DNA from: a bacterium
Lineage (GTDB): Bacteria; Patescibacteriota; Saccharimonadia; Saccharimonadales; JACDBH01
Length of the DNA: 52,649 nt
Assembly (NCBI GenBank): GCA_029557395.1
Contig: JAKQIK010000045.1
Coordinates: 1-52,649 of the forward strand
Direction of reading: 5' to 3'
Both the position numbers and the translations under genes were made by a program. Below, piece after piece: positions 1,935 to 36,347 of the stretch (the stretch's first letter is position 1; every line of letters starts with the position of its first letter). The notes under the pieces were generated by a model. It worked only from the letters and a program-made list of their open reading frames with translations, was not told the DNA's origin and ran no database searches.

Positions 1935-1941
1935 AATAACC

Positions 1942-2610: not shown

Positions 2611-2614
2611 AGAT

Positions 2615-5056: not shown

Positions 5057-5202
5057 CGAAAACCACCAGTGGTGGTTTGAGTTCACGAGAAATAAGCCTT
5101 TCTGATTGAATAGTAAGCTGATATACACACGGTTTATCAAGATGAATAGTGATGAGGTCGTGCTTTTTGTAAGCCATAACAACACACAAAACTAGAACAT
5201 TA

Positions 5203-5278
5203 TGGAGCCGAAGATGGGACTCGAACCCACGACCTGCTCGTTACGAATGAGCTGCTCTACCAGCTGAGCTACTTCGGC
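5203..5278 (-). tRNA. tRNA-Thr (anticodon CGT), CCA encoded
   Basis: Minus strand GCCGAAG-TA-GCTC...anticodon loop TTCGTAA...GTGGGTTCGAGTCCCAT-CTTCGGC-T-CCA, 76 nt. Confidence 0.9.
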
Positions 5279-5316
5279 ACTAATAGAAACTACCTGAGAT
5301 TATACACCACAAAAGG

Positions 5317-6459: not shown

Positions 6460-7018
6460 CTTGTATTCCTTCTTGCTGTGGAGATAAACCAGCACCCATA
6501 CTATGGCCAAGATCTCTCAGTAAATGTAGAAGTTTCTTTTGGATCTTAGCTGGGTGATGGACATGACTAATGGTCAGACTCCCCACATAAGTTTGTACAA
6601 CTATTGTACCAAATCCTAGCAGAGTCTGCTCAATTCCATCAATTTCATAATTAACCATTTGAATTTGATCAACACCGATAGCCACCATACTTCGCTTGAA
6701 CAAGCCTTTTTGGGTAATTTGTATCATACGCTGATCCGTAAAAATATAAACACTATAGTTCCAGCTAATCCACCAAGGTAACATAATCAACAGCCCTAAT
6801 AAAAATCCTATTGCTAGCGCTATATAAAAAGTCATAACGGTCGGTAGTTTTTCGGGGTTATTTGCATAAACAAAATTCATACCCACTACTACGAGCATTG
6901 GTATCAGTAGTCCAACACAAGCAAATACGAGCCCCCTACGCATAACAACTGGGTGTTTGCGAAACACTAATAGCACAACCTCGTCATCAAATTGCTCTTT
7001 GAAATACCTAATCGGCAT
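6449..7018 (-). CDS. membrane protein with bacterial PH-like (YdbT/bPH_2-like) domain
   Basis: Two TM helices followed by a beta-rich domain. ATG at 7016-7018 is preferred over the TTG at 7057. Confidence 0.55.
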   Translation of the reverse strand: MPIRYFKEQFDDEVVLLVFRKHPVVMRRGLVFACVGLLIPMLVVVGMNFVYANNPEKLPTVMTFYIALAIGFLLGLLIMLPWWISWNYSVYIFTDQRMIQITQKGLFKRSMVAIGVDQIQMVNYEIDGIEQTLLGFGTIVVQTYVGSLTISHVHHPAKIQKKLLHLLRDLGHSMGAGLSPQQEGIQDEE

Positions 7019-7115
7019 ATCATCACCAATATCTTCAGTTCCATTAGCCAAAAACAATATTGTACCAGACTTATCCAGTCATTTTGCTCATTGGTTACAC
7101 CAACAAGTATAAATC

Positions 7116-7190
7116 TGGTGCCCCCGCCAGGATTCGAACCTGGAGCTTCTCTTTAGGAGAGAGATGTTTTATCCCTTGAACTACAGGGGC
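7116..7190 (-). tRNA. tRNA-Gly (anticodon TCC), CCA encoded
   Basis: Minus strand GCCCCTG...TCTCT-CTCCTAA-AGAGA...CCAGGTTCGAATCCTGG-CGGGGGC-A-CCA, 75 nt. Confidence 0.88.
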
Positions 7191-7277
7191 ATCTGTAATC
7201 AGGATATATACTAACATAGACAGCTGGTTTGTCTAAGTCAAAACAGATAGATAGTATCTTTGAGCGTAGACGATAGG

Positions 7278-7793
7278 CTATTTAGATTTGCGATGCTTGG
7301 CCTGAGTATAGACTTCAAAAACAGTTTCGTAATCAAAAATTTCGCTATCGCTAAACCAGTGATCGATTTCTCGTTGTGCCTCTTCTGGATCGCCTGATGC
7401 ATGGATAATATTCGGTATGCCAATACCCTCTTTGTCTGCATGCCCAAAGCTAATATGAGCATAGTCACCTCGTATAGTCCCTGGCTGTGCAGACTTTGGC
7501 TCTGTAGTACCAACCATCTTGCGCACTAAAGCAACTGCTTCAACACCCTCGAGCACAAAGGCTATCACTGGCCCTTCTTGCATCATCCTAAGAGTTATCT
7601 CAAACTTATCCTGGCCGCGTCGCGACACCATTTTGCCAATGTTCTCATAATGTTCAAAATAGTGGTCTGATGTTGGTTGAAACATCCGAGAAGCGACGAT
7701 TTTTAAGCCTACTCTTTCAAATCTTGTTAGTATCTCGCCAACGATACCACGCTTTACAGCGTCTGGCTTCAATATTATTAGCGTACGTTCCAT
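7278..7793 (-). CDS. ndk: nucleoside diphosphate kinase
   Basis: MERTLIILKPDAVKRG..., GTIRGDY, and active-site His context NIIHASGD. Confidence 0.92.
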   Translation of the reverse strand: MERTLIILKPDAVKRGIVGEILTRFERVGLKIVASRMFQPTSDHYFEHYENIGKMVSRRGQDKFEITLRMMQEGPVIAFVLEGVEAVALVRKMVGTTEPKSAQPGTIRGDYAHISFGHADKEGIGIPNIIHASGDPEEAQREIDHWFSDSEIFDYETVFEVYTQAKHRKSK

Positions 7794-7932
7794 AAATTCC
7801 TTCTTATTAATTTTTACTTAATAAATAATATACCAGAATACTGTTACTAAAGACAGCATATAGAAGTTTTGTATAAAATATTTATTCAATTTTACCTCTG
7901 TTAAAATTTTATACGTGTGTTAAAATACCCTT

Positions 7933-8856
7933 ATGCTAGTATCAAAAATTCGAGTCGACTTCTTGGAATATATGGAGATTGAACAAAATCGATCTCAAAA
8001 AACTATCCAGAATTATGACCATTATCTTACTCGTCTCACTGACTTCGCGGGCGACGACCTAGATGTATCCAATATCAATACGGAATTGGTTAGAAAATGG
8101 CGCTTATGGCTCAATAAACTCGGTACAAATACGTCAGATGAACTACAAAAAAATACACAGAATTATCACCTGATAGCACTGCGTAGTTTTTTGAAATATT
8201 GTTCTAAACGCGATATTCCTACCTTATCAGCTGACAAAATAGAACTTGCCAAATCTAATCGCAAACAAGTAACGTTTCTGGACACAGACGAGCTAGAGAG
8301 GATTTTTAGCCAACCAGATATTAACACATTGGCCGGACTCCGGGATAGGGCTATTTTGGAGTTATTATTTTCTAGCGGTTTGCGAGTCTCTGAACTAGTT
8401 AGCATAGACAAAAGTCATATTAATCTAAAGAGACGAGAATTTATGGTGCGAGGAAAAGGTCAAAAAGACCGGCCTATCTTTATTAGTAAAGATGCATCAA
8501 TATGGATACAAGAATATTTAGACAAAAGAGATGATAACAAACAGCCACTGTTTGTACGTATCGGAAAAACGAGCAAAAGTATCACAACAGATGGTGATTA
8601 TTTTAGACTAACACCTAGGTCTGTCCAAAGGCTTGTCAAAAAATATGCCCTACTCGCTGGTATCACCAAACATGTTAGCCCGCATACATTGAGACATAGT
8701 TTTGCTACAGACCTACTCATGAACGGAGCTGATATCAGATCTGTACAGGCCATGCTCGGACATAGCAACATATCCACCACTCAGATATATACACACATTA
8801 CAGATTCACATCTAAAAGAGTCCTATGAGCAGTTTCATGCTAAAGACCGTCGATAA
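7933..8856 (+). CDS. tyrosine site-specific recombinase, XerC/XerD type
   Basis: SAM-like N-terminal domain. C-terminal catalytic motifs GLRVSEL, HTLRHSFATDLL, LGHSNISTTQIYTH. Confidence 0.88.
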   Translation: MLVSKIRVDFLEYMEIEQNRSQKTIQNYDHYLTRLTDFAGDDLDVSNINTELVRKWRLWLNKLGTNTSDELQKNTQNYHLIALRSFLKYCSKRDIPTLSADKIELAKSNRKQVTFLDTDELERIFSQPDINTLAGLRDRAILELLFSSGLRVSELVSIDKSHINLKRREFMVRGKGQKDRPIFISKDASIWIQEYLDKRDDNKQPLFVRIGKTSKSITTDGDYFRLTPRSVQRLVKKYALLAGITKHVSPHTLRHSFATDLLMNGADIRSVQAMLGHSNISTTQIYTHITDSHLKESYEQFHAKDRR

Positions 8857-8880
8857 CACGCTACTTATTTTAACAATAAC

Positions 8881-10422
8881 CTATGGATAAGGACGGTATT
8901 TGCCATGGCATATTCCATTAGGAACATCGTTTGCCTGCCCCCTAGGTGAATCTACAGGCCCACGTGACGTTGATGTCTGCGATGGAGAAATACCCGAGGA
9001 TGCAGTAAACCTCATTATTAGCGTCACCCTATATCTCCTACAGCCATTAGCGCCATTGCTATTGTCGATGATAGTTCCTAGATCAGGGTATGTATGCTTG
9101 ACCGTGTCCCCATTCATACATCCATAACCTGTAAAATTATCACTGGTTCCGTCACCCCATACCCAAGTACAGCTTGCTACAACAGACGGTGCGTTATTTG
9201 AGCGATTTACAAAAGCAAACTCCCAAACAAATTTCTGACCACTAGACCCACCTGTATTACAGCTTGCGGGTTGGCTAGGTGACCCATCGCAAGTACCTAT
9301 ACCTACATTACCTCCTGTACTGGCGGATGCGACAGTACCGCTAGCATCTGGCCCAGGAGGGGCGCAATCGTCTTTATATTCGGCACCAGCAGCCCTACCA
9401 GACATGCTGTATCTCTTGCATATTCTATCACCGCTAAAGATTGCGTAGGTATTGAAAACAGTCCCTCCGGTGTTCAAACTATCTATAGGTACTCTGACCT
9501 GAATCCTACGGAAAACATCGTTAGCTTTGCCAGTAGAGTCAATCAAGGCTTGACTACCTGTAATGTCTACCTGTGCATCACTGGAATCATTAAAACTAAT
9601 ACTTGTACTAACATCTCTGTATAAAGATGATTGCTTTACATAATATTCATCTGTAGGCACTCCAATTCCGCTCAGATCTATTTTACTTAGACACCTATAT
9701 CCATCTGTAAGCGATGTATCACATCTCGACTGGATTATCCGACCCTTATCAGTCGTGTTGTTAATGGCTACCGTATCACTCACGCTCGGGGGTGATGGGT
9801 ATAAATAGAAAATAAATGAGTTATTTACAAGAGTATTTCGATTTAGTGATGCTGTTTTTGGTATTAATTCTATCTTCAAGACGCCAATATTACTGGCCGT
9901 GTTCCATACATCCTTATCCGGTAATTGATTTGGTACAGTAGAGGGTATGGTGTCCGACCTCTTGACCGAGTCCCACCCTATAACGATACGACTAGATAAT
10001 GCACTAAGCTGAGCGCTATTAACTGTCCCGTTTGAATCTATCAAACTGTTTTCAATGCTCTTTACAGTAGGATTCACCAACAAGCAACTAACCATAATAT
10101 TGTTGCCTGGATCAATGCTATAATCATAATCAGCACCTTGTGGGCAATCATATTTTTTTGAAAGTGGTGCTCCCCCCGAATTTATCTTGTTTATAGCCAT
10201 ATTTATACCACTCTCGGCAGCATAAAAAGCTTGATTGCTCAGATGATCATCCAATGTACGCCTCTGAGCTTGGCGGATAATTGAAGAAAACCCAAGCGCA
10301 AGCAAACCAAGAATGCCCATTATCACAAGTACAGAAAAGATAGCAACTATCCCATTTTCGTTTTTGTGAATATATATTGTTGTTTGAATATTATTATTCT
10401 TGTATGCTCCCATATTGCTCAT
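8881..10422 (-). CDS. pilus-associated protein: PilX-like N-terminus, Cys-rich C-terminus with PKD-like motif
   Basis: N-terminal TM followed by QAFYAAESGINMA (PilX_N-like). C-terminal WVWGDGTSD...VKHTYPD resembles the PKD domain signature. It is the last gene of the minor-pilin operon. Confidence 0.6.
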   Translation of the reverse strand: MSNMGAYKNNNIQTTIYIHKNENGIVAIFSVLVIMGILGLLALGFSSIIRQAQRRTLDDHLSNQAFYAAESGINMAINKINSGGAPLSKKYDCPQGADYDYSIDPGNNIMVSCLLVNPTVKSIENSLIDSNGTVNSAQLSALSSRIVIGWDSVKRSDTIPSTVPNQLPDKDVWNTASNIGVLKIELIPKTASLNRNTLVNNSFIFYLYPSPPSVSDTVAINNTTDKGRIIQSRCDTSLTDGYRCLSKIDLSGIGVPTDEYYVKQSSLYRDVSTSISFNDSSDAQVDITGSQALIDSTGKANDVFRRIQVRVPIDSLNTGGTVFNTYAIFSGDRICKRYSMSGRAAGAEYKDDCAPPGPDASGTVASASTGGNVGIGTCDGSPSQPASCNTGGSSGQKFVWEFAFVNRSNNAPSVVASCTWVWGDGTSDNFTGYGCMNGDTVKHTYPDLGTIIDNSNGANGCRRYRVTLIMRFTASSGISPSQTSTSRGPVDSPRGQANDVPNGICHGKYRPYP

Positions 10423-10424
10423 GA

Positions 10425-11081
10425 TTATAACCTATTTTTTACTGTTGTTGAATAAGAACTAACTGCGCAAAATTGACCGCCAGCATTTATACCCTTACAC
10501 AAACTAAACTTTTCAACTTTTGGCGTCGCAGATAAATCTTCTGATACAAAATCATTATCATCGCCAAAACTTACCCTTACATCCACAACCCAAAATGAGC
10601 TCGTGGGAGGTTGATATATATCAAATTTTACTAATCTCATACCTTCTCCTAACATTTCTGTTCCAAGACTACTGGGATTTGGATTTGGGTTATTTATATC
10701 CGCGTGGGGACAAGTTGAGTCGCTAATGTTATCACGCCATAGCACATGCTCTACACCAGATTGGCCTAATCGTTTATTTTTTGAAAATGTATACCGCAAA
10801 CTACCAATACAAATAGAAGAAGGGTCGCCACCAATATCCCTTTTAACAATATTCAGAGACTTATCATACTTAATAGCATCTGATGCACTGTCTATGATTT
10901 TTCTGGCAGTATCCTGCGTCTTGCTCATGATCATACCCTTATAATACATCCGGCCAGCGTGGATAATAGCATAAGAACACACAAGGAGCACCATAGAAAA
11001 TATAACTGTTGCAATCATAAGCTCAACTATTGTAAAGCCTGTTTGATTAGTAAGCTTATTGTCACTTTTGTTGTTACGCAT
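10425..11081 (-). CDS. type IV minor pilin (PilW-like)
   Basis: Prepilin N-terminal motif NQTG|FTIVELMIATVIF. Confidence 0.75.
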   Translation of the reverse strand: MRNNKSDNKLTNQTGFTIVELMIATVIFSMVLLVCSYAIIHAGRMYYKGMIMSKTQDTARKIIDSASDAIKYDKSLNIVKRDIGGDPSSICIGSLRYTFSKNKRLGQSGVEHVLWRDNISDSTCPHADINNPNPNPSSLGTEMLGEGMRLVKFDIYQPPTSSFWVVDVRVSFGDDNDFVSEDLSATPKVEKFSLCKGINAGGQFCAVSSYSTTVKNRL

Positions 11082-11083
11082 AC

Positions 11084-11563
11084 TTATTGTACCTTATATG
11101 CCATTACTATTTCACTCCTGCCACCGCCAAGATGATTCCATCTTACAGTAACTGTATAGCTAAGATTATTTATATCAGCATTGTTCTTGGCGATGAAGTA
11201 GTAGTAAAGATCATCTTTTATACAGCTAAGATCGTAACCTAGGTCGTCTAGCTGATTGGGATTAGACACGTTTGCAGATGTCATATCCTCCTTCATACAA
11301 AAATTACCCACCGCCACCTGTGAGGTAAACTTACTTACGGGTACACTAAACCAAGCTGTACGCAATAACTCTAACTGACCTTGAGCAATTTTGGATGCTT
11401 CCGACCGTTCTTGATTGTCTCTGGTGGTCTGGATGTTCTTGTTCATTATTGAATAAGTGATACCAAGCACGCTACTGACTACAGCTATGGCTATCAAAAC
11501 TTCAATGATTGTGTCGCCCTTGCTATTACCTAGTATTGTACGATGCTTGAATATCATGCGCAT
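11084..11563 (-). CDS. type IV minor pilin (PilV-like)
   Basis: Prepilin-type motif KG|DTIIEVLIAIAVV followed by a hydrophobic helix. Confidence 0.7.
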   Translation of the reverse strand: MRMIFKHRTILGNSKGDTIIEVLIAIAVVSSVLGITYSIMNKNIQTTRDNQERSEASKIAQGQLELLRTAWFSVPVSKFTSQVAVGNFCMKEDMTSANVSNPNQLDDLGYDLSCIKDDLYYYFIAKNNADINNLSYTVTVRWNHLGGGRSEIVMAYKVQ

Positions 11564-12441
11564 ATATCTCCACTAGTAGGATGTGTATCGATTTCGGTTG
11601 ATATTTCGGTAGCTGAGCCTTTTGAACCTAATCTTATTTGAGCCTGTTGCCCGTTGGATCCCTCCAAGCAAATCATAACTCCTTCTCTAGATAGAAGCTC
11701 GCCACTCGACGTAAATAGATTATACTCACCACCACTAGTCATAAAATACTTGCTAGAAAGAACTTTACCGTCTAATAGGTCAAAGAACGGTTCTCTAAAG
11801 GCAATAAATTGGACTGTGTTATCACCATCTCCTTGTGATTTATTAAAATCTAAAAACGATGTAAACACTAATGCACGTAGGTCAGTGCTTGGTGAGTTAA
11901 TAGCTACAATTTTCTTTACTGATAGTTGATATGTGTTTGGTATTTTTTGTAACAAATCTGGTGCAGCCGTGAAAAGTGCGTCATTATGTACACCCTTCAT
12001 ACCATGCATCAAGCCAGGATTATCTTCGCCCGTCTCAGGGATAATCCTCAAACCTATAAGTGGGTATATATCATTTGTTTGCCCATCAGGCATTAACACC
12101 TTACCGAAAAATGCACAGTCTCCATTTGTACCTGTTCGCCCAGAGGCATCAGGAGTTACAGTAGGACTTTGATCTGGTCCTGACATCTCGCACTTGTAAC
12201 CATCAGAAGAAAAGTAGCCTTTGGATACATCACTAACTATATTCTGTAGCATGGCTTCGTAGTTGCGAACAGATTGAGAAAATGCAACCCTGGCCTGTCT
12301 ACCTCTGAAAGATATCATAATACCAGTAAACAATACTGCTGTCACTGCCAGTACTATCAGAGTTTCGACTATTGTATAGCCATCATTATACCGTCTGTCG
12401 CCACCCCTGTTCAGATGGCCACGGTTTAGCCAACGCTTCAT
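11554..12441 (-). CDS. type IV minor pilin (FimT/GspH-like)
   Basis: Prepilin-type motif DG|YTIVETLIVLAVTAVLF. Confidence 0.7.
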   Translation of the reverse strand: MKRWLNRGHLNRGGDRRYNDGYTIVETLIVLAVTAVLFTGIMISFRGRQARVAFSQSVRNYEAMLQNIVSDVSKGYFSSDGYKCEMSGPDQSPTVTPDASGRTGTNGDCAFFGKVLMPDGQTNDIYPLIGLRIIPETGEDNPGLMHGMKGVHNDALFTAAPDLLQKIPNTYQLSVKKIVAINSPSTDLRALVFTSFLDFNKSQGDGDNTVQFIAFREPFFDLLDGKVLSSKYFMTSGGEYNLFTSSGELLSREGVMICLEGSNGQQAQIRLGSKGSATEISTEIDTHPTSGDICA

Positions 12442-12494
12442 GCATGAATTATAACATAAGCGTAAAAGAATATAGCAAACTATTATTCAAAAGC

Positions 12495-13412
12495 TTATTT
12501 CAATAACAAAATATTACCAACATACCAGTTGATGATGGACCGGCCAAAGATATAAACAAGGATAGTAGCAACAATCAAAAATGGTCCAAACGGTATCTTA
12601 CTAGACCTAGTGAGCTTGCCAGTTAACAATCCTGGTACAACCACAACTGTACCAATGATAGATGCTAAGAATAATACCAGAAAAGACTCAGCCGGATCCT
12701 GGAGGAGTAGGCCAATCACAATACCTATCTTGATATCGCCACCACCAATCCAACGCCCATTTGATAGCCAAAATATTATATAGAAGATACCGGAAGCAAT
12801 AAATAAACTAGTTAGTGTGTTGACAGCAAGCACGAAGTCTATGCCACCAGGCTGGAAGATAATGTTGACTATAGCCAGCACCAGGGCTAATACAGCCATA
12901 GGATATACTAACCTGTTTGGCAGTAGCATCCAGCGTATGTCATACACAATCAGAGCCATAAAGCCCGTCAGGAGTATCAGCCATACGCCAAAGCTAAGGA
13001 TATCTAGCCAGCTATTTAACCCCAATGGCCAAAAAATATAAGACATTACGAATAGTAGAGATGTAGTTACTTCTACCACCGGATATTGCCAAGATATTTG
13101 TTTTTTGCAATATCTGCACTTGCCACCGACAGACAGCCAGCTCACCACCGGAATAAGGTCATACCATGAAAGCTCGTGCTTACAATACGTGCACATGCTA
13201 CGGCCATTAAGGATAGAATATTTTTGGTTACGGATATTTGTGGATTTTTTTTGAGATTTTTTGGCCGATTTTGACTCTGCCTTCTGCAATAACCGATCCT
13301 GCATGTATATGCGCCAAACCAGAGCATTGACAAAACTCCCTAGACACAGTCCCAAAAAACCGATTAGTACTATAAACATTAGTATCATAATAACATCTTT
13401 ATACTCTAACAC
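12495..13412 (-). CDS. pilD: prepilin peptidase / N-methyltransferase (A24 family)
   Basis: Multi-TM protein, zinc-binding CTYC...CRYC segment, and GGGDIK aspartyl-protease motif. Confidence 0.9.
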   Translation of the reverse strand: MLEYKDVIMILMFIVLIGFLGLCLGSFVNALVWRIYMQDRLLQKAESKSAKKSQKKSTNIRNQKYSILNGRSMCTYCKHELSWYDLIPVVSWLSVGGKCRYCKKQISWQYPVVEVTTSLLFVMSYIFWPLGLNSWLDILSFGVWLILLTGFMALIVYDIRWMLLPNRLVYPMAVLALVLAIVNIIFQPGGIDFVLAVNTLTSLFIASGIFYIIFWLSNGRWIGGGDIKIGIVIGLLLQDPAESFLVLFLASIIGTVVVVPGLLTGKLTRSSKIPFGPFLIVATILVYIFGRSIINWYVGNILLLK

Positions 13413-13426
13413 CGTAAAAATCGATA

Positions 13427-13462
13427 CTATAAAAGGACAGCCCTCAAACTGATGACTGTCCT
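13427..13462 (-). terminator. hairpin + T-run downstream of the major pilin gene (attenuator before pilD)
   Basis: AGGACAG/CTGTCCT 7-bp stem (13434-13440 / 13456-13462) followed on the minus strand by TTTTATA. Confidence 0.55.
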
Positions 13463-13488
13463 AATAATTATTTTTAACCTATATCAGA

Positions 13489-13944
13489 TTAAGATTGTAT
13501 ACAAGCCTGCGTACCGCCATGAAGGCCAAATCTGAGAGCGTAAACCCTACTTCCTGTAGCGCCAATTACAATATCAGTACCGTTACATGTTCCAATTGCC
13601 ACCTGGTAACTTCCTGGTGTTAAGTTAGTACCGTTGGCCGCCGCGGTAATAAAAGTTCCTGTACCGGTAAGTTGCGTCAATGTACCTGCATTAGTTTTAA
13701 CACTAGTAAGTCTTGCTGTTGAATTAACCTGTTGCCCGTTAGCATTAGACTCGTATTCTGTAATCGCAGACAATAACCTGCTAGCTTCGCTACGCATAGT
13801 TGTATTTTGCTGATTACGCCTTAGAGCTGGGATAGCCAAGAAGACAATCAGCATGATCAAACCAGCGATAGCTAGCACAATCAGGACCTCGATGATTGTA
13901 AATCCTTCTGACTTACGTCTTAGGTTGTTTATTTTATGACTCAT
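13489..13944 (-). CDS. pilA: type IV major pilin (PilA-like)
   Basis: Leader MSHKINNLRRKSEG|FTIIEVLIVLAIAGLIM. Small protein (151 aa) with a C-terminal Cys pair. AAAGGGGG Shine-Dalgarno before ATG 13942-13944. Confidence 0.8.
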   Translation of the reverse strand: MSHKINNLRRKSEGFTIIEVLIVLAIAGLIMLIVFLAIPALRRNQQNTTMRSEASRLLSAITEYESNANGQQVNSTARLTSVKTNAGTLTQLTGTGTFITAAANGTNLTPGSYQVAIGTCNGTDIVIGATGSRVYALRFGLHGGTQACIQS

Positions 13945-14390
13945 AGTGCAAATGCCCCCTTTGACTAAATGCATTTTATTATTTATATAAACTGATGATA
14001 CAGCCTCGGCAGACAAAACACAAGCTTTTTATGGTCAAAAGCTACCCCCGTTGTCCACAAGCTCTCGGCCATACTTTCTAGTTTCGGCAGAAAACTCACC
14101 TTATTTTGACAAAGAAACAAATCATAGCTCACTCTTTTGTCTCAAAATACATAACCCTTCCATTTTATTTCGGCAAAACAGAAACCAAAAGCCGACAGGC
14201 AGTTTCAAAAAACATAACTAATCATAATAACGAAACTGTAATCTGTTTCTGCGGAACTTATCCAGATAAAGAGCCACAGACTCTTTATCCTGTACTACAA
14301 ACAGTCCTCGAAAACCCGACTACAGTTAGTTATGATGACAAATCAGTTTTTGAAAAGCATGGCACTAAACTATGTCGTCTAAAAGGACGA

Positions 14391-14774
14391 CTATTTGATG
14401 GAGGATAGTTTTGCTAGGTGTTTGTCTAATGTCATTAGATCATGGGAGTCGATTTGTGACTGAGCTAACAGCAAACAATCAGTCATGTCTAATTTTGGAT
14501 CGTCCATGTAATAACTTATAGCCTTGGTTGCAAATACAGATAAATGCACAGAATTTAAGTCTAACAAAACACCCAGACAACGACCAACTCTGTCTCTGGG
14601 ATAGCGATAAAATGTATTAAATTCCAGAACAAAACATAACTCTGCCAGCACATAATCTGTGACTATGAGACTGCCTGCCTTGCACGACGTAAGTAGTTGC
14701 TTGGCACTAGCCGCCTCTACTGGCAGATCATTGCTAAAGAATCTGATCAGGATATTCGTATCAATCAGCTTCAT
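14391..14774 (-). CDS. vapC: PIN-domain toxin (VapC-like)
   Basis: MKLIDTNILIRF N-terminus with a conserved Asp, 127 aa, overlaps the upstream antitoxin gene by 4 bp. Confidence 0.8.
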   Translation of the reverse strand: MKLIDTNILIRFFSNDLPVEAASAKQLLTSCKAGSLIVTDYVLAELCFVLEFNTFYRYPRDRVGRCLGVLLDLNSVHLSVFATKAISYYMDDPKLDMTDCLLLAQSQIDSHDLMTLDKHLAKLSSIK

Positions 14775-15055
14775 AGGTAAGGCTTGCCCGTCGAACGGTC
14801 TTTATAGGCTTGTGCGGACTGACTAAGTTCTGTTGACTGCTGTGGTTGGCACTCACCTAGCCTGTCTTGAGCAAACTCACCCCAAATCTGGTCTAGCTTA
14901 GAGTTGATATCTGTGACTAGCGGGGTGATTATCAGCTTGCCACCTCTCTGAGTCACAGTGACTTGACGAGTAGTGTCGAGTCCAAGATTCCTTACATATT
15001 TGATAGGTATTGTTAGCTGATTTTTGCTAGTTATTGTGGCTTTTACTGTTTTCAT
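14771..15055 (-). CDS. AbrB/SpoVT-type antitoxin (VapB-like)
   Basis: MKTVKATITSKNQLTIPIKYVRNLGL swapped-hairpin motif. Start set at ATG 15053-15055. Confidence 0.7.
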   Translation of the reverse strand: MKTVKATITSKNQLTIPIKYVRNLGLDTTRQVTVTQRGGKLIITPLVTDINSKLDQIWGEFAQDRLGECQPQQSTELSQSAQAYKDRSTGKPYL

Positions 15056-15148
15056 AGTAATGAATATATCATAGCGCATTACATTTTGTAAATATTAAAA
15101 TATACTTGTCAGATACATTAATATCAAATTAGATCAAGATCTTGCTTA

Positions 15149-15535
15149 TTAAATAAGTGGGAAGATCTGGAGTCGCTCAATATTGCCGATAGAGGCGACC
15201 CAGGCGTCGTTGGTGTAGAACTTGTCTACACCACTGTCAATAGCAGTAGCTATATGTATAGCATCGTAACCTAGAAGTTTTTTGCCATATTCAGCACTCA
15301 ACTCAACCGCAATAGTTGCAATCCTCTGACTAACACTGACGAATTTTACGTTGTACATAGAGTCAATAGCTCCTCTGGCCACAGCTAGCGAATCTCTGTC
15401 TCTGAGAGCAAAGCTAGTCAGTACCTCTTGGTAAGCCAGTACCGACAATATCACTGGCTTGGATGTGCTACTCATAATAATATCCCTAGCTACTACACCA
15501 AACTGTGGGTGCGATTCTAGGAAATATATCAGCAC
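15149..15535 (-). CDS. PIN-domain protein, N-terminally degenerate (possible decaying orphan toxin)
   Basis: C-terminal PIN features (YDAIHIATAI...TND) are present, but only a GTG start is available. The usual N-terminal D-T-N acidic motif is missing, an in-frame stop lies 5 codons upstream, and no cognate antitoxin ORF is present. Confidence 0.5.
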   Translation of the reverse strand: MLIYFLESHPQFGVVARDIIMSSTSKPVILSVLAYQEVLTSFALRDRDSLAVARGAIDSMYNVKFVSVSQRIATIAVELSAEYGKKLLGYDAIHIATAIDSGVDKFYTNDAWVASIGNIERLQIFPLI

Positions 15536-15594
15536 AATAAACCTTACTTATATTTATTAATCGCCATCCGTATATCTTTAATCGCTTTTTTGTC

Positions 15595-16818
15595 CTAGCC
15601 ACCTATACCTGTTTGGCCCGCCAATCCATAGATAGGTAGCAAGATAGCACCCACGAGGATAAAGGCTACGATACCAAGGGCAATCATCATAAGCGGCTCA
15701 ATAATGGTAGAGATGGTCTTTATCTGATTGTCGACCTCTTTTTCGTAATATTCGGCTATTTTGTTCATCATATCTTCCATCGAGCCAGATTGTTCACCGA
15801 TACGGAGCATCTTGGGTACAAGCTCAAGGAAATTTGGGTCGCCTTCTAGCGAGTCGGACAATGCTTTGCCACCTTTGACCTTGTCCATAGCTTTTTTGAT
15901 AGAAGCTTCGACATGTACGTTACTGATAGATTTAGACACTATATCTAGTACCTGTAGCAGTGGCACACCACTAGCTACAAGCGTGGCACCAGTACGTGCA
16001 AATCTGGCCATATAAACCTTCATAAATAGCTCACCAAACGGCCATGTCTTCATCTTTAGTTTGTCTATATATAGCTTGCCTGGCCCTGTCCTAGCCCATC
16101 TGGTAGTCAAAAATATCAATACTACCACTATAATTATCACTGCCCACCAGTAATTAATAATCATGTGAGAGAGAGCTAGCAAGAGCTTAGTACTAATCGG
16201 TAGACTTGCACCAGGCATATCTTTATATATCACCTCTACCTGTGGCAGAACACTCACAACCATAAACCCAACCACACCGACCATCACTAGTAATACAATC
16301 GCAGGATAAGCCATGGCTCCGCGTACCTTGGATACAATTTCGGCATCTTTTTCTTGTTGCAGGGCAATCCTGGTGAGTGCCGCATCTAGCGTGCCAGATG
16401 TCTCACCTGCAGCTATCAAGTTGATAAAAATCTGATCAAACACCTTAGGATGCCTACCTAGTGCGTCAGACAAGGTACTACCAGCTTCGACATCGGATAT
16501 TACTTGGCTAATTATTACTTTGAGTGGTTTGCTCTGAGTCTGATCTAATACACTACGAAGACTCTGCACCAATGGCAGACCTGCGTTAATAAGAGTAGCT
16601 AGCTGTCTAGCGAACAATATCCTATCTTTGGCTTTGACACGATTTGTCAGTTTGCTAAATATGTTATCACCAGCGGCATCTTTGAGAACAATATCGATTG
16701 GAGCAAGACCTTCTTGCTTGATAAGCTTGGCGGCAGCTTCTTTGCTATCAGCTTGGACCTCGGCCTTGACCTTTTCGCCGGTTTTACTATCTCTGGCAAT
16801 ATAACGAAACGTTAACAT
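15595..16818 (-). CDS. pilC: type IV pilus platform protein PilC (GspF family)
   Basis: 407 aa with duplicated GspF domains and 3 TM segments. Confidence 0.92.
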   Translation of the reverse strand: MLTFRYIARDSKTGEKVKAEVQADSKEAAAKLIKQEGLAPIDIVLKDAAGDNIFSKLTNRVKAKDRILFARQLATLINAGLPLVQSLRSVLDQTQSKPLKVIISQVISDVEAGSTLSDALGRHPKVFDQIFINLIAAGETSGTLDAALTRIALQQEKDAEIVSKVRGAMAYPAIVLLVMVGVVGFMVVSVLPQVEVIYKDMPGASLPISTKLLLALSHMIINYWWAVIIIVVVLIFLTTRWARTGPGKLYIDKLKMKTWPFGELFMKVYMARFARTGATLVASGVPLLQVLDIVSKSISNVHVEASIKKAMDKVKGGKALSDSLEGDPNFLELVPKMLRIGEQSGSMEDMMNKIAEYYEKEVDNQIKTISTIIEPLMMIALGIVAFILVGAILLPIYGLAGQTGIGG

Positions 16819-25712: not shown

Positions 25713-26720
25713 TCAGGACGTCAGATTTGCTTTATTGATTTCAGTTTTAATCTCATCAAGTGTTAGCCGCCTGGCTTGTAGTTCTTTGATTTTTTCAACT
25801 GTCTTTAGGCTACTCTCATTAAACCATCTGTAGCCGCCGTCAGTAGTTTTAGCTACTTTTAATAGCCCCTCATTGGTCCAGAACCGTATCGTACTAGTTG
25901 GCGTATCGCTGACCCGAGCTAATTCTCCAATCTTAAGTAGACGCTCCTCTTTAACTCCCCTTGGCTTTTTATTACCAAGATATACATCAAGTGAGCTATC
26001 TACAGCTTTAATAACCAATGAGTAGAAGTCATTCAAGTCACCAGTCATATGGGCTTTTTCTAGAGCATTGATATAATCTTCCCTCTTATCATTTCCAATA
26101 ACGGTAATGGGATAATTGGCTTGCATAAGAAGTAAGTTCATAAGCAATCGTGCGGTTCGTCCATTACCATCTACAAAAGGGTGTATTCTAACTAGCTTAT
26201 AGTGAGCATCAGCAGCAACAATAACTGGATGCGTCTCACTCTTACTCTTTAGCCAAGTAAAAAATTCTTCCATTAACTCAGGTACTTTAAGTGGATCTGG
26301 TAATTCAACGTCAGAACCAGCTATCGCAACTGGTACGTTACGATACTTTCCAGCGTTTTCATCATCAATCTTTTGCAAAATGAGCTTGTGAATGTTCATT
26401 ACATCTTGCTTGGTGAGATCTTGCTGCTTAGTATTCGCAGCTAGATCTTTAACGTAATCAATTGCTTCGGCGTGGTTGGTAGCCTCTAAGTGTTCAGTTA
26501 ATGTTTTACCTTTAACCGTAACGCCCTTTTCTATTACAAGTGCAGTTTCACGACGATTGAGCGTGTTGCCCTCAATAGCATTTGAGTTATACGTCAGCTC
26601 AACCTTAAACCATTCACTCAGGTTTTTTAGATAGTCGGTAGATAATGGACGCAATTTTTGAAGTTGGTCCTTCTTATCTGTGAGCCTTTGAAGTGTTACT
26701 TGTAAGTTTGAAGTTGTCAT
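25713..26720 (-). CDS. Fic-domain protein fused to a C-terminal MerR-type HTH
   Basis: Fic motif HPFVDGNGRTARLL (HxFxDGNGRxxR). C-terminal KIGELARVSDTPTSTIRFWTNEGLL...GYRWF is MerR-like. Confidence 0.85.
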   Translation of the reverse strand: MTTSNLQVTLQRLTDKKDQLQKLRPLSTDYLKNLSEWFKVELTYNSNAIEGNTLNRRETALVIEKGVTVKGKTLTEHLEATNHAEAIDYVKDLAANTKQQDLTKQDVMNIHKLILQKIDDENAGKYRNVPVAIAGSDVELPDPLKVPELMEEFFTWLKSKSETHPVIVAADAHYKLVRIHPFVDGNGRTARLLMNLLLMQANYPITVIGNDKREDYINALEKAHMTGDLNDFYSLVIKAVDSSLDVYLGNKKPRGVKEERLLKIGELARVSDTPTSTIRFWTNEGLLKVAKTTDGGYRWFNESSLKTVEKIKELQARRLTLDEIKTEINKANLTS

Positions 26721-26786: not shown

Positions 26787-27872
26787 CGTAATGACTCAAT
26801 ACCTTTGCAACATAGCCCTGGTTGGCGTTAGCCAACCAAAATGTGGCTGTTCTACACTGTAAGAGTACAAAATCTAAACAGGAGAACAGCCACATGAGCT
26901 ATTCTAACAACCCTTTACTACCAAAAGCGAGAGCCGAAGCGGTACGCCTCGTGGTCGAGCGTAACATACCCCCAGCAGTTGCCGCTCGCAAGAGCGGTAT
27001 CCACCGCACCACGCTGTGGCGCTGGCTACGGAAGTGGCATACACTCAACCAGAATGTCCAGCTCACCAACGACAACCGTCCAGGGCGGAACAATGCTGTC
27101 ACGGGTGTGAGTAGCTTCCGCTTGAGTGCCTGTGTCTGGAATATACCAACCAGGAGTAGCCGTCCCCGCTTCTTTGGGCGAGCAGTCTCAGTAGCGGTCG
27201 TAGACCGCATTCGGTACTACCGAAACAGGTACCAGCGTTGTGCGACCATTGTCCACGCCTACTGCCAGCGGGAGGGTACCGTCGTGTCCCTCAGCACGGT
27301 ACGACGGGTGCTGTACCGACTGGGGCTAGTGGTTCGCAAGAAGTGGCAACGCAAGTGGCGACCGCCACTGCCACGACCAGATGCAACCAAACCAGGTGAC
27401 CTGGTGCAGACCGACACCGTCCATCTGTACGACCACCGCACCAAACAACGGACATATTTGTACACTCTTGTTGACGTCTACAGCAGATGGGCGTACGCCG
27501 AGCACCACACCAGGCTGGGGCAAGACATTGCGGCGGATGTTATCCGCCGCAGCCAGGCCCATGCAGGGTTTCACTTTACGACCGTCCAAGCAGACAACGG
27601 CCCAGAGTTTGGCAGACACTTCGAGGAGTTGTTACAGGCACAGGGGGCAGTAGTACGTCACAGTAGGGTCAGGCGCCCCAATGACAATGCCCACATTGAA
27701 AGGTTTAACCGGACAGTCCAGGAAGAATGCACGGGCAGTAGCTGCCCGGTCGCTACCAATTTACAAGGCAAGGTACTAGCGTACCTTGCCTACTACAACC
27801 AAGAGCGGTTACACTTGAGTTTGCAGTGCAGAACACCGCTTGAGATGTTGCAAAGGTGTTGAACTAATTACG
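26787..27872 (+). mobile_element. intact IS481-family insertion sequence (1086 bp)
   Basis: Imperfect terminal inverted repeats: CGTAATGACTCAATACCTTTGCAAC (26787-26811) vs the reverse complement of GTTGCAAAGGTGTTGAACTAATTACG (27847-27872). 6-bp direct target duplication CCCCCT (26781-26786 and 27873-27878). Single DDE transposase ORF. Visibly much more GC-rich than its surroundings. Confidence 0.85.
26894..27862 (+). CDS. IS481-family DDE transposase (rve integrase core)
   Basis: N-terminal HTH (SGIHRTTLWRWLRKW) and DDE core (VQTDT..., VQADNGPEF, NDNAHIERFNRTVQEE). AGGAG Shine-Dalgarno 9 nt before ATG 26894. The stop lies inside the right inverted repeat. Confidence 0.88.
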   Translation: MSYSNNPLLPKARAEAVRLVVERNIPPAVAARKSGIHRTTLWRWLRKWHTLNQNVQLTNDNRPGRNNAVTGVSSFRLSACVWNIPTRSSRPRFFGRAVSVAVVDRIRYYRNRYQRCATIVHAYCQREGTVVSLSTVRRVLYRLGLVVRKKWQRKWRPPLPRPDATKPGDLVQTDTVHLYDHRTKQRTYLYTLVDVYSRWAYAEHHTRLGQDIAADVIRRSQAHAGFHFTTVQADNGPEFGRHFEELLQAQGAVVRHSRVRRPNDNAHIERFNRTVQEECTGSSCPVATNLQGKVLAYLAYYNQERLHLSLQCRTPLEMLQRC

Positions 27873-31948: not shown

Positions 31949-32920
31949 TTATGGCTCGTTAATACTTTGAATAATCCAATCAAAGCGTCGGATTTGCTTT
32001 ATCGATTGGTGATGAACCATCAATGCCTTATAGCTTGCTACGTTACGCACATTTAAGTTTCGTTTCATTTTATTCTGTGCGTCCTTATCAAGTCTTCGTC
32101 CTGACGACCAAAGATCAACACCCAGATACGACACCCCTTTACGCACAGGATTTATGAGGTTTACATTAGGATTAACATCCAAATTAAGTTCGTACGTCAG
32201 AAAGTCTTCTGCCTTTTTACGTGCATTTTCTAGTTTTACCTTATCATCCATAAAGCATAACCAATCGTCACCATAACGAAGGTACGCATTCGGCTTTATT
32301 CTGTGCGTGATATAACGATCAAATTCGTTTAGGTAGATGTTTGCTAGGATTTGACTAGTGAGATTGCCGATTGGGATACCTCTGTTATTATCAAAGCTAC
32401 GATAACTTTCTATAGTCTCGCTCAATAGCCACAAGGCTGTCGGGTCACTTACCCGTCGTCTCAGTAATCGTAACAGCGTACTCTTATCAACTGAGTCAAA
32501 TAACTTTGTTACGTCCCCGCGCCAAAGCCACCCGTCTTTATATTGCCGCATAAATTTTTGCGCTCTATCTATTGCACCGTGCAAACCTTTATTCTGCCTG
32601 CACGACCAGGCATCATAAATGAACGTTTTATCCCAGATTGTAACTAAATAATCGTAAAGCAATCGATGCACAACTCTATCGCGAACAGACGCCACAGCAA
32701 TGTCTCGTCGCTTGTTGTCATTAACGATCATATGTGAATAAGGACCGTGTTTGTAAGTGCCAGTTTGGAGTTCAGTAGCCAATTTGAGGATATTATCAAG
32801 TAACTCGTATTCGAACTCTGTAGTAGCACGACTTGGTTTTTTGCCCCTACGAAAAGCTACATACGAACGCCATACGTTTGCTAAACTGATATCTATGGAA
32901 GAATTACCCGTCATCACCAT
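31949..32920 (-). CDS. diversity-generating retroelement reverse transcriptase
   Basis: 323 aa. RT motifs RDRVVHRLL, IPIGNLTSQ (the DGR-specific [I/L]GxxxSQ signature) and YLRYGDDW (YxDD). No maturase or endonuclease domains. Confidence 0.93.
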   Translation of the reverse strand: MVMTGNSSIDISLANVWRSYVAFRRGKKPSRATTEFEYELLDNILKLATELQTGTYKHGPYSHMIVNDNKRRDIAVASVRDRVVHRLLYDYLVTIWDKTFIYDAWSCRQNKGLHGAIDRAQKFMRQYKDGWLWRGDVTKLFDSVDKSTLLRLLRRRVSDPTALWLLSETIESYRSFDNNRGIPIGNLTSQILANIYLNEFDRYITHRIKPNAYLRYGDDWLCFMDDKVKLENARKKAEDFLTYELNLDVNPNVNLINPVRKGVSYLGVDLWSSGRRLDKDAQNKMKRNLNVRNVASYKALMVHHQSIKQIRRFDWIIQSINEP

Positions 32921-33233
32921 TGCCTTTGAAATTTACAAAAAATTACTGGAATTAAACACCAAGTTGGACAAGAAGTACCGCTATTCGCTCGGTGAACAAG
33001 CAGCAAAGTGCTGGTCAGATACCCTAGAGCAGCTACTATTAGCAAAACACGCTCCAAAACCAATGAAAGCAAGCTACCTCCTTAGGGCAAATGCTCTTGC
33101 CGAGATGACTTCGTTGCATCTTAGAGCCATCCTTGAATTAAAGCTCACCAACGAAACGAACGTACTTAAAGTCCAAGCACGCCTGAGCGAAGCACGCCGA
33201 ATGATCGGCGGCTGGCTCAAAAGCGTGCATTAG
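32895..33233 (+). CDS. avd: Avd-like four-helix-bundle accessory protein (opposite strand to RT/TR)
   Basis: 112 aa, helical, and basic at the C-terminus (EARRMIGGWLKSVH); resembles Avd / 23S-IVS four-helix-bundle proteins. ATG 32895 was chosen because the upstream part of the ORF-track ORF overlaps the RT gene on the opposite strand. Confidence 0.7.
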   Translation: MEELPVITIAFEIYKKLLELNTKLDKKYRYSLGEQAAKCWSDTLEQLLLAKHAPKPMKASYLLRANALAEMTSLHLRAILELKLTNETNVLKVQARLSEARRMIGGWLKSVH

Positions 33234-33251
33234 ACCAACACTGATACACCA

Positions 33252-33358
33252 CACCGCGAGCCGAGCATCATTCTCATTCTCGGCATTCGAGTTGTTCAGG
33301 TTCGGCTTACCATCGTTGTTCACGTAGGAGTTCGGCACGTTCTGCCACCTGTCGACCG
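33252..33358 (-). repeat. DGR template repeat (TR), sense on the minus strand
   Basis: 107-bp gap-free match to 33661-33767, with 23 of 24 mismatches at TR adenines. In the VR frame it reads as the AAY-rich peptide VDRWQNVPNSYVNNDGKPNLNNSNAENENDARLAV. Confidence 0.93.
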
Positions 33359-33654: not shown

Positions 33655-35634
33655 TTACCCCACCGCGAGCCGAGCACCAAACCCATACCCGGCAACCGAG
33701 CCGTCCAGGCCCGGCTCACCACCGCCGTCCACGTAGGAGCCCGGCACACCCTGCCACCCGTCGACCGCTTGCGGCTCTAAATCAAAGTGTCTAATGTAGG
33801 TTTTATCGAAAGCACTACTGTCGTTGAGTTTATCCCCCCCGGCACGCAAGGTGTACCAGTAAGTTACTGCATCAAGCAGGCTCGGTACTCTCGCTGATAG
33901 GTTTGGTCGCTGAGCTTGACGTTCACGCAGCAAGCGTACTTGTGTTTCTACAGGCTTATTACTGATCTCACCGTCATAACGGCTTGGTATAAGGCTCAAT
34001 CGCACCGCTGATCCACCGCTGTTACCTGACCACTCTTGGTCACTATAGCGACCGCGGCGATACATTTCATCGTACACAAATGTTGCGTATGGCTGATCTT
34101 TGCCAAAGTTTTCAGCTAGCGCAACTATCTGGGCTTCACTAGCCTCAACGTTAGGCGTAGCCACCAGGTTAAAACGAGCACCGTTTTCAATCAGCTGCTC
34201 AACCAAGTAATCGTAAACCCCGTTCTCCTGCCACTCTTTATCACGCATTGCGAAAAGATGTTCAAGTTCGCTCGCGGAAATAGCTGCCTCACCCCTACGA
34301 AACAGCCTTTGCTTACCACTCAACTGATCTACTACCGTCCTGTATGCCACGTATGCACTCTGTACCTGTTCTCGAATAGCTTCAGGCAACACGCGGGCTA
34401 GCTCAGGTTTATCGCGATCACCACGCATTTGACGAATTTCATTAACACGCGGATCACGTTCGTAGCCAAAACCTTGAATTTCGCGGTCCAGCTCGTACAG
34501 GAAGCGTAGTTCCTCCGCACTTAGGTCCGCGTCAGGATTAGCTGTAATTCTTTTTTCAATCGCAGTTAAACGCTTCATATCCTCTGCTTTGCGAATATAC
34601 TCTGCGCCACCAGGCAAGTCTTTAAGCTGTTCAGCCGTAATATCTGCCATTTCTGGTTCAAGTTCCTGCGCAGCATTTACGCCACGAACCTCGGCAACCT
34701 CGCCCTGCTCCATTCGTATAGCCACCCGTGGAACGGTGTCTTTGCCGTCTTCATCGCGTGTGTAGTACACAAAAAAGTCGCCACCCCTCAACTGCATAGT
34801 TGCTGTGCTTTCACCAGCCGTACACCAACCCGTTCCGTGTCCTTGTAGTGAACCGGAAAGTCTACGGGCTGTACGTGGGTCGTCAGTCTGATTGAACTTA
34901 GTCCACGAACCTCTTGTGTCTTTTCTTAACTCTGGACTATCAGGAGTAACTTCCAATACAGCGTGAGCATAGAGTTTACCGAAATTACCACTTTTAAGGA
35001 GCTTTTGAAGTTCGGCATCGTTAGCCCCGCCATTGACCTGCTCACCCTGTATCCGTGATTTATTTAGCACATCATAAACGTAAGCTAACGCTTCACGGTT
35101 CAGTTCAGGGTAAGGCGCTGTCGTGCCACGACTACGCTTCTGAAACTCGTTTTTTTCTTTATCGAATGTCCCGAGCTTAGTAACTGATGCCCAAGTGTAA
35201 CTCTTAAACCAATCAGGGTATCCACCGTCGTCACCGCCGAGATATTCAACCCATTTACCAAGTCCAGCACGTTGATCAGCCTGTACCGCCTCAACCATTT
35301 GATGACGCATTTCAGAGGTTATTTGAATATCGCCGTGACCCTGTTCGCGAGCTATTCGGCGTTGCAATTCAAAATAACCTTCGGGTACATCCTCAGCATT
35401 AATGACGTGAGCATCTATCTGACGGTCTATGCTAGCCTGGTCGCCAGTTAAAATGCCGTCATTTACGTACTCACGGTTAGCCAAAAATCCCAGATGAGCC
35501 GAGATTTTATCAACAGGCTCATTAGGAATAGACTCGCCACCCTGACGTAAATAGCCCACTACCGCCTCAACTTCATCAGATGTGTGCATCTGTGGGTTAC
35601 GATCGTGTAGAAATGAGCTTCCTGGACTTTGCAT
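33655..35634 (-). CDS. DGR target (variable) protein, 659 aa, VR at the extreme C-terminus
   Basis: Long ORF whose last 36 codons before Gly-stop are the VR. No N-terminal signal peptide or TM segment is evident. The N-terminal ~620 aa match no family I recognise. Confidence 0.85.
   Translation of the reverse strand: MQSPGSSFLHDRNPQMHTSDEVEAVVGYLRQGGESIPNEPVDKISAHLGFLANREYVNDGILTGDQASIDRQIDAHVINAEDVPEGYFELQRRIAREQGHGDIQITSEMRHQMVEAVQADQRAGLGKWVEYLGGDDGGYPDWFKSYTWASVTKLGTFDKEKNEFQKRSRGTTAPYPELNREALAYVYDVLNKSRIQGEQVNGGANDAELQKLLKSGNFGKLYAHAVLEVTPDSPELRKDTRGSWTKFNQTDDPRTARRLSGSLQGHGTGWCTAGESTATMQLRGGDFFVYYTRDEDGKDTVPRVAIRMEQGEVAEVRGVNAAQELEPEMADITAEQLKDLPGGAEYIRKAEDMKRLTAIEKRITANPDADLSAEELRFLYELDREIQGFGYERDPRVNEIRQMRGDRDKPELARVLPEAIREQVQSAYVAYRTVVDQLSGKQRLFRRGEAAISASELEHLFAMRDKEWQENGVYDYLVEQLIENGARFNLVATPNVEASEAQIVALAENFGKDQPYATFVYDEMYRRGRYSDQEWSGNSGGSAVRLSLIPSRYDGEISNKPVETQVRLLRERQAQRPNLSARVPSLLDAVTYWYTLRAGGDKLNDSSAFDKTYIRHFDLEPQAVDGWQGVPGSYVDGGGEPGLDGSVAGYGFGARLAVG
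33661..33767 (-). repeat. DGR variable repeat (VR)
   Basis: Encodes VDGWQGVPGSYVDGGGEPGLDGSVAGYGFGARLAV. Its 3' end (sense GCTCGGCTCGCGGTG) is identical to TR and adenine-free, after which the flanks diverge (IMH-like). Confidence 0.93.
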
Positions 35635-35687: not shown

Positions 35688-35716
35688 ATACTATCATATT
35701 TTAAGGTGCGTGTCAA
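35688..35716 (-). promoter_or_regulatory. sigma70-like promoter for the DGR target gene
   Basis: Minus strand TTGACA (35716-35711), 17-nt spacer, TAGTAT (35693-35688) with an upstream TG. Located ~55 nt before ATG 35634. Confidence 0.45.
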
Positions 35717-35783: not shown

Positions 35784-36347
35784 CTACTGGAGGTTTACCT
35801 TTACACCACCTGAGAAGGAACTATCGTGTAGTTCAGCAGTGGTAATCTTTGCACCAGCAGGTACATCAAACAAAATGTCACCTTTTACGCTGTTACCTGG
35901 ATTTATTTGGTCAAACCAAGTACTACCCGAATTGCCTGATGATGCATAGATGGTAGCTGTATCATCGGCAGCAAACTGTTGACCCTCAGCGTTTAATAGC
36001 TTTTGATCGCTTGATAAGAGGCTTTGAGCCTCATCACCTATGTTCTTAATGCTAAGGCTAAGACGACAAAACTCACCCTGTGCTTTTTCGTTTAAGTACT
36101 GGTCTCCTACTGATTTCTCACCACATTTAATGCTGGCTACAGTAAATTCAAACTTGCCATCACGTGCCGGTTCGCCAATTTTAGCCGTTGTTGCTTTTTC
36201 TTCGGTCTTCTCAGACGCATTATTATTTCCACTGTTGCTCTGGTTTGAGGTGGTGCTAGAACCGCCACCCGCTGCACCTATAATGCCCCCAACTACTAAC
36301 AACGCTAGAATTGCTGTTATTATCTTGTGTTTTTTGAACCAATTCAC
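35784..36347 (-). CDS. DUF4352-like membrane-anchored extracellular Ig-like protein
   Basis: N-terminal TM, Ser/Asn/Gly-rich linker, then KIGEPARDGKFEFTV...FCRLSLSIKNIGDEAQ, which is typical of DUF4352. Confidence 0.65.
   Translation of the reverse strand: MNWFKKHKIITAILALLVVGGIIGAAGGGSSTTSNQSNSGNNNASEKTEEKATTAKIGEPARDGKFEFTVASIKCGEKSVGDQYLNEKAQGEFCRLSLSIKNIGDEAQSLLSSDQKLLNAEGQQFAADDTATIYASSGNSGSTWFDQINPGNSVKGDILFDVPAGAKITTAELHDSSFSGGVKVNLQ

Follow-up and report, generated by a model that had tools for sequence, protein, structure and literature searches.

The window analysed here, contig JAKQIK010000045.1 of assembly GCA_029557395.1 with its full 52,649 nucleotides, stems from a bacterium of the order Saccharimonadales (Saccharibacteria, Patescibacteriota) and carries an intact diversity-generating retroelement (DGR). 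The single target of this DGR is a protein of 659 residues (P0001; 33655..35634, minus strand, coordinates including the stop codon, as taken from the list of open reading frames (ORFs) and the translation). It is a soluble fusion of two independent modules—an N-terminal module (N-module, residues 1–408) and a stalk–lectin module (residues 409–659), whose last residues form the diversified variable region (VR). We lean, with some restraint, toward the view that this target works in the cytoplasm as a binder whose specificity varies, joined to a constant module of invader type.

The VR (33657..33767, minus) encodes residues 623–659, the last 37 of the protein, and is 77% identical to a template region (TR; 33248..33358, minus), a repeat of 111 nt with 30 adenines and 19 adenine-containing codons. 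TR and VR differ at 25 positions, of which 23 are adenines in the TR (19 A>G and 4 A>T); the peptide repertoire that these codons can encode amounts to roughly 10^17.6. The reverse transcriptase (RT; 31949..32920, minus) matches RVT_1 at 3e-16 and phrog_1423 at 6e-82, and the Avd-like accessory gene (~32895..33233, plus) matches bAvd, DivGenRetAVD (NF033474) and phrog_3206. This accessory gene is inverted relative to target, TR and RT, and its start overlaps the start of the RT gene. The order of target with VR, TR, avd and RT, with avd on the opposite strand and in a Patescibacteria host, matches the B3/clade 2 architecture of CPR (candidate phyla radiation) DGRs—a placement made from gene layout and host group. 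The inverted layout is probably the B3 architecture of Wu et al. (2018, PMC5758913), to which 90% of the CPR DGRs belong. In Saccharibacteria metagenome-assembled genomes (MAGs), avd is inverted in the same place in 11 loci with full-length targets and in 6 loci with short, lectin-only targets, and hence this inversion is a stable trait of the DGR lineage.

Copies of the target that are nearly identical and stem from other samples vary almost exclusively in the VR, so this type of cassette diversifies in nature. When the members of two 90%-identity clusters were aligned, the differences fell mainly or only within residues ~621–654. A cluster of 15 proteins shows 22 variable columns in residues ~624–654, with up to seven residues per column, and only 14 variable columns elsewhere, nearly all of them contributed by two members. 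The cluster to which the window's target belongs comprises eight proteins. It has 77 variable columns, 22 of them within the final 39 residues; these hold up to seven residues each, while no column elsewhere holds more than three. The scaffold positions within the VR—W, VP, S, V, G, P, L, S and ARLAVG—are fixed across copies. The alignments thus bear the mark of mutagenic retrohoming that is still going on while the scaffold is conserved. The same string of genes occurs in three other MAGs (L008, L009 and L019+L030), each with a different VR. In the closest DNA sequencing run, no contig covers 33645–34006, which includes the VR, and this gap is unusable as evidence of heterogeneity. The VR of the window itself is Gly-rich and has a GC content of 73%, owing to the 19 A>G changes among its 23 adenine-site changes. 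Sister copies in the same 90% cluster display a wider range of VR residues (Y, D, S, R, V and N), and the A>G bias thus belongs to the allele of the window rather than to the cassette.

An AlphaFold2 model built with a multiple sequence alignment of 122 sequences reaches a predicted local distance difference test score (pLDDT) of 92.4 and a predicted template modelling score of 0.73 (pLDDT of the single-sequence model: 38). It divides the protein into helices (residues 1–235), an α/β core (238–342), further helices (343–485) and a mixed C-terminal domain (487–659). The C-terminal domain (33658..34176, minus) adopts a C-type-lectin (CLec)/FGE-like fold and structurally matches TvpA, Mtd and other folds of this class; the VR of the target is hence carried on such a scaffold in the model. 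A Foldseek search of the model against the PDB returned no match at E≤0.001, and a sequence/profile search of the PDB with the target returned noise only (E≥0.16). The first-pass annotation of this DNA, which had proposed a search for a CLec/FGE-like fold with AlphaFold and Foldseek, had suspected a lectin-like ending and a diversified part in the C-terminal ~40 residues. The fold was found, and the diversified part is indeed confined to residues 623–659, but the lectin-like fold is not limited to these and spans ~487–659.

The lectin domain is preceded by a helical stalk (34177..34410, minus; residues 409–486, with model helices at 395–484). Stand-alone relatives of ~260–340 residues start at the equivalent of this stalk region, which places the stalk in the C-terminal module. 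The remaining N-module (34411..35634, minus; residues 1–408) is composed of the helical part 1–235, the α/β core and the helices that follow, and is conserved across the family. Within it, a core domain (34456..34923, minus; residues ~238–393) is shared with large polyvalent proteins of giant size from phages and may be remotely PcfJ-like. The target protein matched no family of Pfam, NCBIfam or PHROGs, and Pfam at E≤10 on 10 family members gave scattered sub-threshold matches only. An earlier description of ~620 N-terminal residues as unrecognised hence remains valid at the level of named families; however, with the lectin-like fold starting at ~487 the truly unassigned part is ~485 residues, and residues 1–408 of it constitute a conserved module.

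Both modules are found apart from each other. The C-terminal half (residues ~410–659) occurs alone in other Saccharimonadales as proteins of ~260–340 residues; 10 such lectin-only loci were fetched. A survey of homologues for association with DGRs, as had been suggested at first, showed a cassette of Avd and RT in 11 full-length loci and in 6 of the 10 short loci—where the inverted avd and the RT directly adjoin—next to 9 full-length orphan copies with no RT within ~8 kb. Most of the short relatives (L053–L062) share an acidic N-terminal segment, M[DE][IF]KG.G..V.V.PAEQ.D.WL...A.EI...A..RGL..P, which may be a docking motif. The N-module in turn exists in the window's own genome as a paralogue with no DGR (contig 41, L002 1171-2906, minus), 47% identical over residues 137–408. 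The C-terminus of this paralogue consists of IAQQLIEAGKG/ESV..LD.FQGL repeats in place of a lectin domain, and its gene is split into two overlapping ORFs (203 and 386 residues) near the contig end, which reflects a frameshift, pseudogenisation or an assembly error.

The N-module family is large. In an exhaustive search of representatives at 50% identity, 1,988 Patescibacteria clusters match at E≤1e-3 and 1,075 at E≤1e-30; many of the 1,988 align to residues 1–405 of the query only and bear other C-termini, with lengths of ~350–1,585 residues. More than 1,000 proteins match in a collection clustered at 90%, all of them hypothetical and devoid of Pfam domains. Pfam on nine relatives that align only over the N-module gave nothing informative, and a query of the ESM Atlas with a homologue returned unnamed CPR clusters only. 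Near-invariant residues of the module are W270, C271, G285, D286, F287, P302, R303, E315, R317 and G318. They group in the α/β core, where Cys271, GDF, PR and E-x-RG stand out as conserved elements of the part (residues ~250–393) that has homologues in giant viral ORFs. The named homologues come from MAGs of Candidatus Saccharibacteria/Saccharimonadales. Within the order the family is unevenly spread, with matches in 29 of 301 genomes and in none of 13 further genomes from its own taxonomic family. Sequencing runs that hold the locus are mainly metagenomes of activated sludge, wastewater and freshwater.

No export signal is recognisable in the target. The protein starts with MQSPGSSFLHDRNPQMH, and its start codon is backed by 25 homologues with N-termini that line up from residue 1 and share a conserved FLHERNP...H.S.EV motif. 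Export signals were assessed by hydropathy and motif scans. Hereby, the peak Kyte–Doolittle mean over 19 residues (KD19) is 0.74, far under the level of a transmembrane (TM) segment or signal peptide; the motif scan found no twin-arginine motif, the sole cysteine (C271) lies outside any lipobox, and there is no LPXTG-type feature. The initial observation that the target bears no signal peptide, lipobox or TM segment is therefore confirmed, and it extends to the family: 268 of 269 family proteins have neither a signal-like start nor a TM-grade segment, and a signal-like N-terminus is seen in one (P0250). Six of the 269 contain modestly hydrophobic stretches that do not resemble TM helices; in three, these lie in the C-terminal variable tail. 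All 10 short lectin-only relatives are free of a hydrophobic signal as well (maximum KD19 ≤1.48).

A clear link leads from the N-module to phages. IMG/VR holds 21 viral contigs with relatives of the target, one over its full length and ~20 over the core region only. The ORFs extracted from 18 of the core-only contigs are very large (1,500–3,400 residues), and several run off the contig end. BLASTP aligns the target with a 3382-residue ORF of this set at 1e-16, with 36% identity over 133 residues (267–393 of the target), and a hidden Markov model (HMM) of the N-module matches 8 of the 19 extracted IMG/VR ORFs, which are partial or giant (1502–3382 residues), at E 1e-11 to 1e-21. All three giant ORFs tested match Pfam LPD38 at 1e-28 to 1e-31; the name stands for "large polyvalent protein associated domain 38". 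Together, these matches indicate that the core is also used in large polyvalent proteins of phages and, by sequence, is homologous to a domain inside giant LPD38-bearing ORFs; the latter look like the virion-delivered large polyvalent proteins of uncultured phages. Giant viral ORFs of 2,800–3,400 residues (L064, L066–L069, L073–L077, L081 and L082) carry the core in the form WCTAGESTA...GDFYVYY...VRM...EVRGN, and those of L064, L066 and L081 additionally a HExxH segment (HEGVHAATE/HEGTHAA) and a C-terminal LPD38. A Foldseek search of predicted viral structures (BFVD) returned as its strongest match an uncharacterised phage protein of 1,494 residues (E 9e-8), followed by several PcfJ-like entries at E 0.018–0.5 and polyvalent-protein entries lower down.

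Profile comparisons suggest, and do not prove, that the core is remotely PcfJ-like, with evidence that is marginal. The Pfam model of PcfJ (PF14284) found nothing in 41 related genomes and, in 401 genomes of the phylum, one unrelated PcfJ protein of 733 residues, with which hhalign found no match for the family. Against a PcfJ alignment of six sequences, hhalign gave E 0.12. With an alignment assembled from phage and bacterial PcfJ proteins, residues 259–338 fell on the PcfJ core, with cysteine on cysteine and RG on RG, at E 0.012–0.022 and an hhalign probability of 2–4%. The score of 27.0 compares with 14.6 ± 2.4 for column shuffles (maximum 23.4), none of 150 of which reached it. In Listeria phage B054, the PcfJ-domain gene gp62 (L049 1011-2791) stands directly after a gene annotated as an anti-CRISPR of the AcrIIA9 family and before an integrase, a neighbourhood that is early or anti-defence-like.

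How does the target compare with known systems? With the CPR DGR targets of Roux clade 2/Wu B3 it shares the host group, the position as sole target beside the cassette with its VR at the C-terminus, an inverted Avd that lies between TR and RT, the absence of any TM segment, signal or Pfam domain, and a central motif that may be PcfJ-like. According to Roux et al. (2021, PMC8144416), clade-2 targets typically have no TM segments or other domains, and their non-membrane-bound nature "remains to be established". Wu et al. (2018, PMC5758913) described a PcfJ-like motif upstream of the VR in a few CPR targets (category g); the target of the window may belong there, but it falls below the Pfam threshold for PcfJ and is linked to it by structure, a marginal profile match and the strong match to polyvalent ORFs. 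Compared with two DGR variable proteins of solved structure, the lipoprotein TvpA of Treponema denticola and the tail-fibre tip Mtd of a Bordetella phage, the target bears no signal, stands in no virion context, has a different N-module of 400 residues and shows no detectable sequence similarity. With polyvalent/PcfJ (PF14284) proteins it has in common the core homologous to a domain of LPD38-bearing ORFs and the order C...G...strand...RG of the PcfJ core. Large polyvalent proteins of phages and conjugative elements (Iyer et al. 2017) combine numerous effector domains of different kinds in one chain, mostly including an MPTase. Unlike them, the target consists of only two modules, has no MPTase, LPD38 or other effector domain, and is encoded in a cellular genome or island with no packaging or transfer genes among those scanned nearby.

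Cytosolic DGR targets have been described in cyanobacteria (Vallota-Eastman 2020, PMC7517822) and in conflict systems of Thiohalocapsa (Doré 2024, PMC10907252; Kaur et al. 2020, PMC7159879). Such sensors—kinase–CLec proteins in cyanobacteria, STAND NTPase and MoxR–VWA systems—resemble the target in being signal-less, with a diversified C-terminal CLec domain on a conserved N-module. They differ from it in that no kinase, NTPase, protease or death-like domain is detected in the target, in the RT (clade 5 there, CPR clade 2 here), and in the MoxR/VWA pair, which is found beside one relative (L063) and not in the window's island. The first-pass annotation had speculated that a cytoplasmic variable protein would form a less-explored class. 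A cytoplasmic default is backed by the signal-less relatives, but the class as such is already documented, and for CPR DGR targets the lack of a signal is the norm, one that earlier studies describe, rather than a newly recognised state. What is new here is the confident domain map, the fusion of a stand-alone stalk–lectin module with a widespread N-module, the significant sequence link of the core to LPD38-bearing giant viral ORFs, and the evidence of natural VR turnover.

In the mechanism that we propose, mutagenic retrohoming from the TR rewrites the last 37 residues of the lectin domain, and the protein is most likely both produced and active in the cytoplasm. There, its hypervariable tip would supply a changing binding specificity, possibly in conflicts with genetic elements, and the conserved N-module of invader type might supply a constant activity. 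The cytoplasmic location is proposed because neither the target nor its relatives bear a recognisable export or anchoring signal. Several points weigh against this picture. The Pfam model of PcfJ is unmatched by the target or nine relatives even at E≤10, and neither PcfJ, on whose function a literature search found no paper, nor the shared polyvalent-protein domain has a known function. Hydropathy and motif scans could miss patescibacterial or non-classical export signals, and phage tail fibres such as Mtd likewise have no signals. Three RNA libraries yielded contigs that overlap the target gene in part, with 90–99% identity; these alone do not prove its transcription. Finally, the adjoining gene (35784..36347, minus), which lies upstream of the target and is co-directional with it, encodes a membrane-anchored DUF4352 protein (Pfam 6e-26) and could hint at a surface role.

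This last point belongs to an alternative that we regard as somewhat unlikely: the target might be an adhesin that is displayed or released by a non-classical route, with which the epibiont binds variable surface structures of its host bacterium—the classical ligand-binding role of DGR proteins. Among DGR proteins of surfaces and phages, a VR on a CLec fold is the canonical scaffold for binding ligands, a CPR review ascribes CPR DGRs to host attachment, the DUF4352 gene is conserved just upstream of the target in five loci, and P0250 does start with a signal-like N-terminus. It is, however, the only one among 269 relatives to do so; Sec, Tat, lipobox or LPXTG-type features are missing from the target, from the other 268 and from the 10 short lectin-only relatives alike, and the N-module is shared with intracellularly acting invader proteins. 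Pfam models of VirB4 and VirD4 are also unmatched in the window's genome, which is 63% complete, so that their absence says little.

Two further explanations were weighed. As a delivered effector, the target would be transferred into another cell along with the island DNA or by contact with the host, where the variable tip would select what is bound and the conserved module would act on it. Iyer et al. (2017, PMC5512222) proposed that polyvalent proteins enter together with the DNA of the invader and have an early role in the recipient. The homology of the core to a domain of LPD38-bearing giant phage ORFs, the integrative island around the cassette, a 62%-identical copy between two serine recombinases on an IMG/VR contig (L063) and the patchy distribution in the order would all suit such a scenario. 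We nevertheless consider it distinctly improbable: capsid, tail, portal and conjugation genes are absent from the scanned island genes and from L063, the target has no MPTase or other polyvalent domains, several relatives carry the gene between housekeeping genes, and tblastn of the target against curated phage and plasmid records found no relatives. That the target is instead decaying or functionless cargo of a selfish cassette, with its variation a by-product that serves no selected binding role, is extremely improbable in our view. The nine orphan loci and the split paralogue in the window's genome are what one would cite for it; the target frame, however, is intact, its first 620 residues are strongly conserved (55–94% identity among relatives), the scaffold residues between the variable positions are kept, and RT, Avd and TR are all intact.

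A bolder reading, which we hold to be rather improbable, is an effector programmable by the DGR, in which the hypervariable lectin tip steers a domain of invader type. It could serve for recognition inside the cell when Saccharibacteria and their mobile elements are in conflict, or it could be handed over to the host bacterium. If true, this would be a retroelement-diversified effector that acts intracellularly or after injection, and no adhesin of the cell surface. Roux et al. (2021) expressly leave it open on which side of the cell envelope CPR DGR targets work, and the present locus is a clean example on which to address it, combining an intact and naturally varying cassette, a confident model, a two-module layout and a link to phage polyvalent proteins. 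Cys271, the E-x-RG motif, the stand-alone lectin module and the DGR-less paralogues offer experimental handles, and a few Saccharibacteria are cultivable and genetically tractable. If the target turns out to work inside the cell or to be delivered into another, the biology of DGRs in episymbionts would reach beyond adhesion.

The target gene was also noted at first for its high GC content, and with 0.498 against 0.420 for the window it is indeed GC-rich. The excess is confined to codon positions 1 and 2 (0.64 and 0.42), whereas the GC content of position 3 (0.43) is within the range of the neighbouring genes (0.35–0.44). The difference hence reflects amino-acid composition and is no sign of a separate origin. 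A promoter-like site, TTGACA-17-TAGTAT with an upstream TG (35688..35716, minus), lies 54 nt before the ATG; it is the best consensus match in the region (10/12), and a consensus match only.

The cassette lies on an integrative island with three large serine recombinases, a ParB-like gene, an rve-type insertion sequence (IS) transposase, a Fic–MerR fusion, regulators of XRE and MerR type and a weak AAA-like gene; ychF stands at its edge. The scan of island genes gave no match to families of capsid, tail, portal or conjugation proteins, and a gene of 458 residues 3 kb from the target has only a weak match to AAA_lid_2. The mobile-island setting assumed by the first-pass annotation thus applies to the window, but not to all relatives: in others the target, with or without a DGR, sits amid housekeeping genes (RNase J–target–FtsK; Fpg–target–DNA polymerase III delta), which makes the cassette a small mobile unit and not strictly an island function. 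On L063, the related target lies with its inverted Avd and RT at 781-4147, flanked by the two large serine recombinases. The 22 kb read there contain no virion genes, and the "viral" label of this contig may reflect an integrative island; its neighbouring genes (5181-15625) encode a MoxR-type AAA_5 ATPase, a VWA protein and a ClpB-like AAA protein. The window's island bears, at its far end, the gene for a Fic/DOC domain fused to a MerR helix-turn-helix (25713..26720, minus), which adjoins the rve-family IS transposase (26822..27862, plus).

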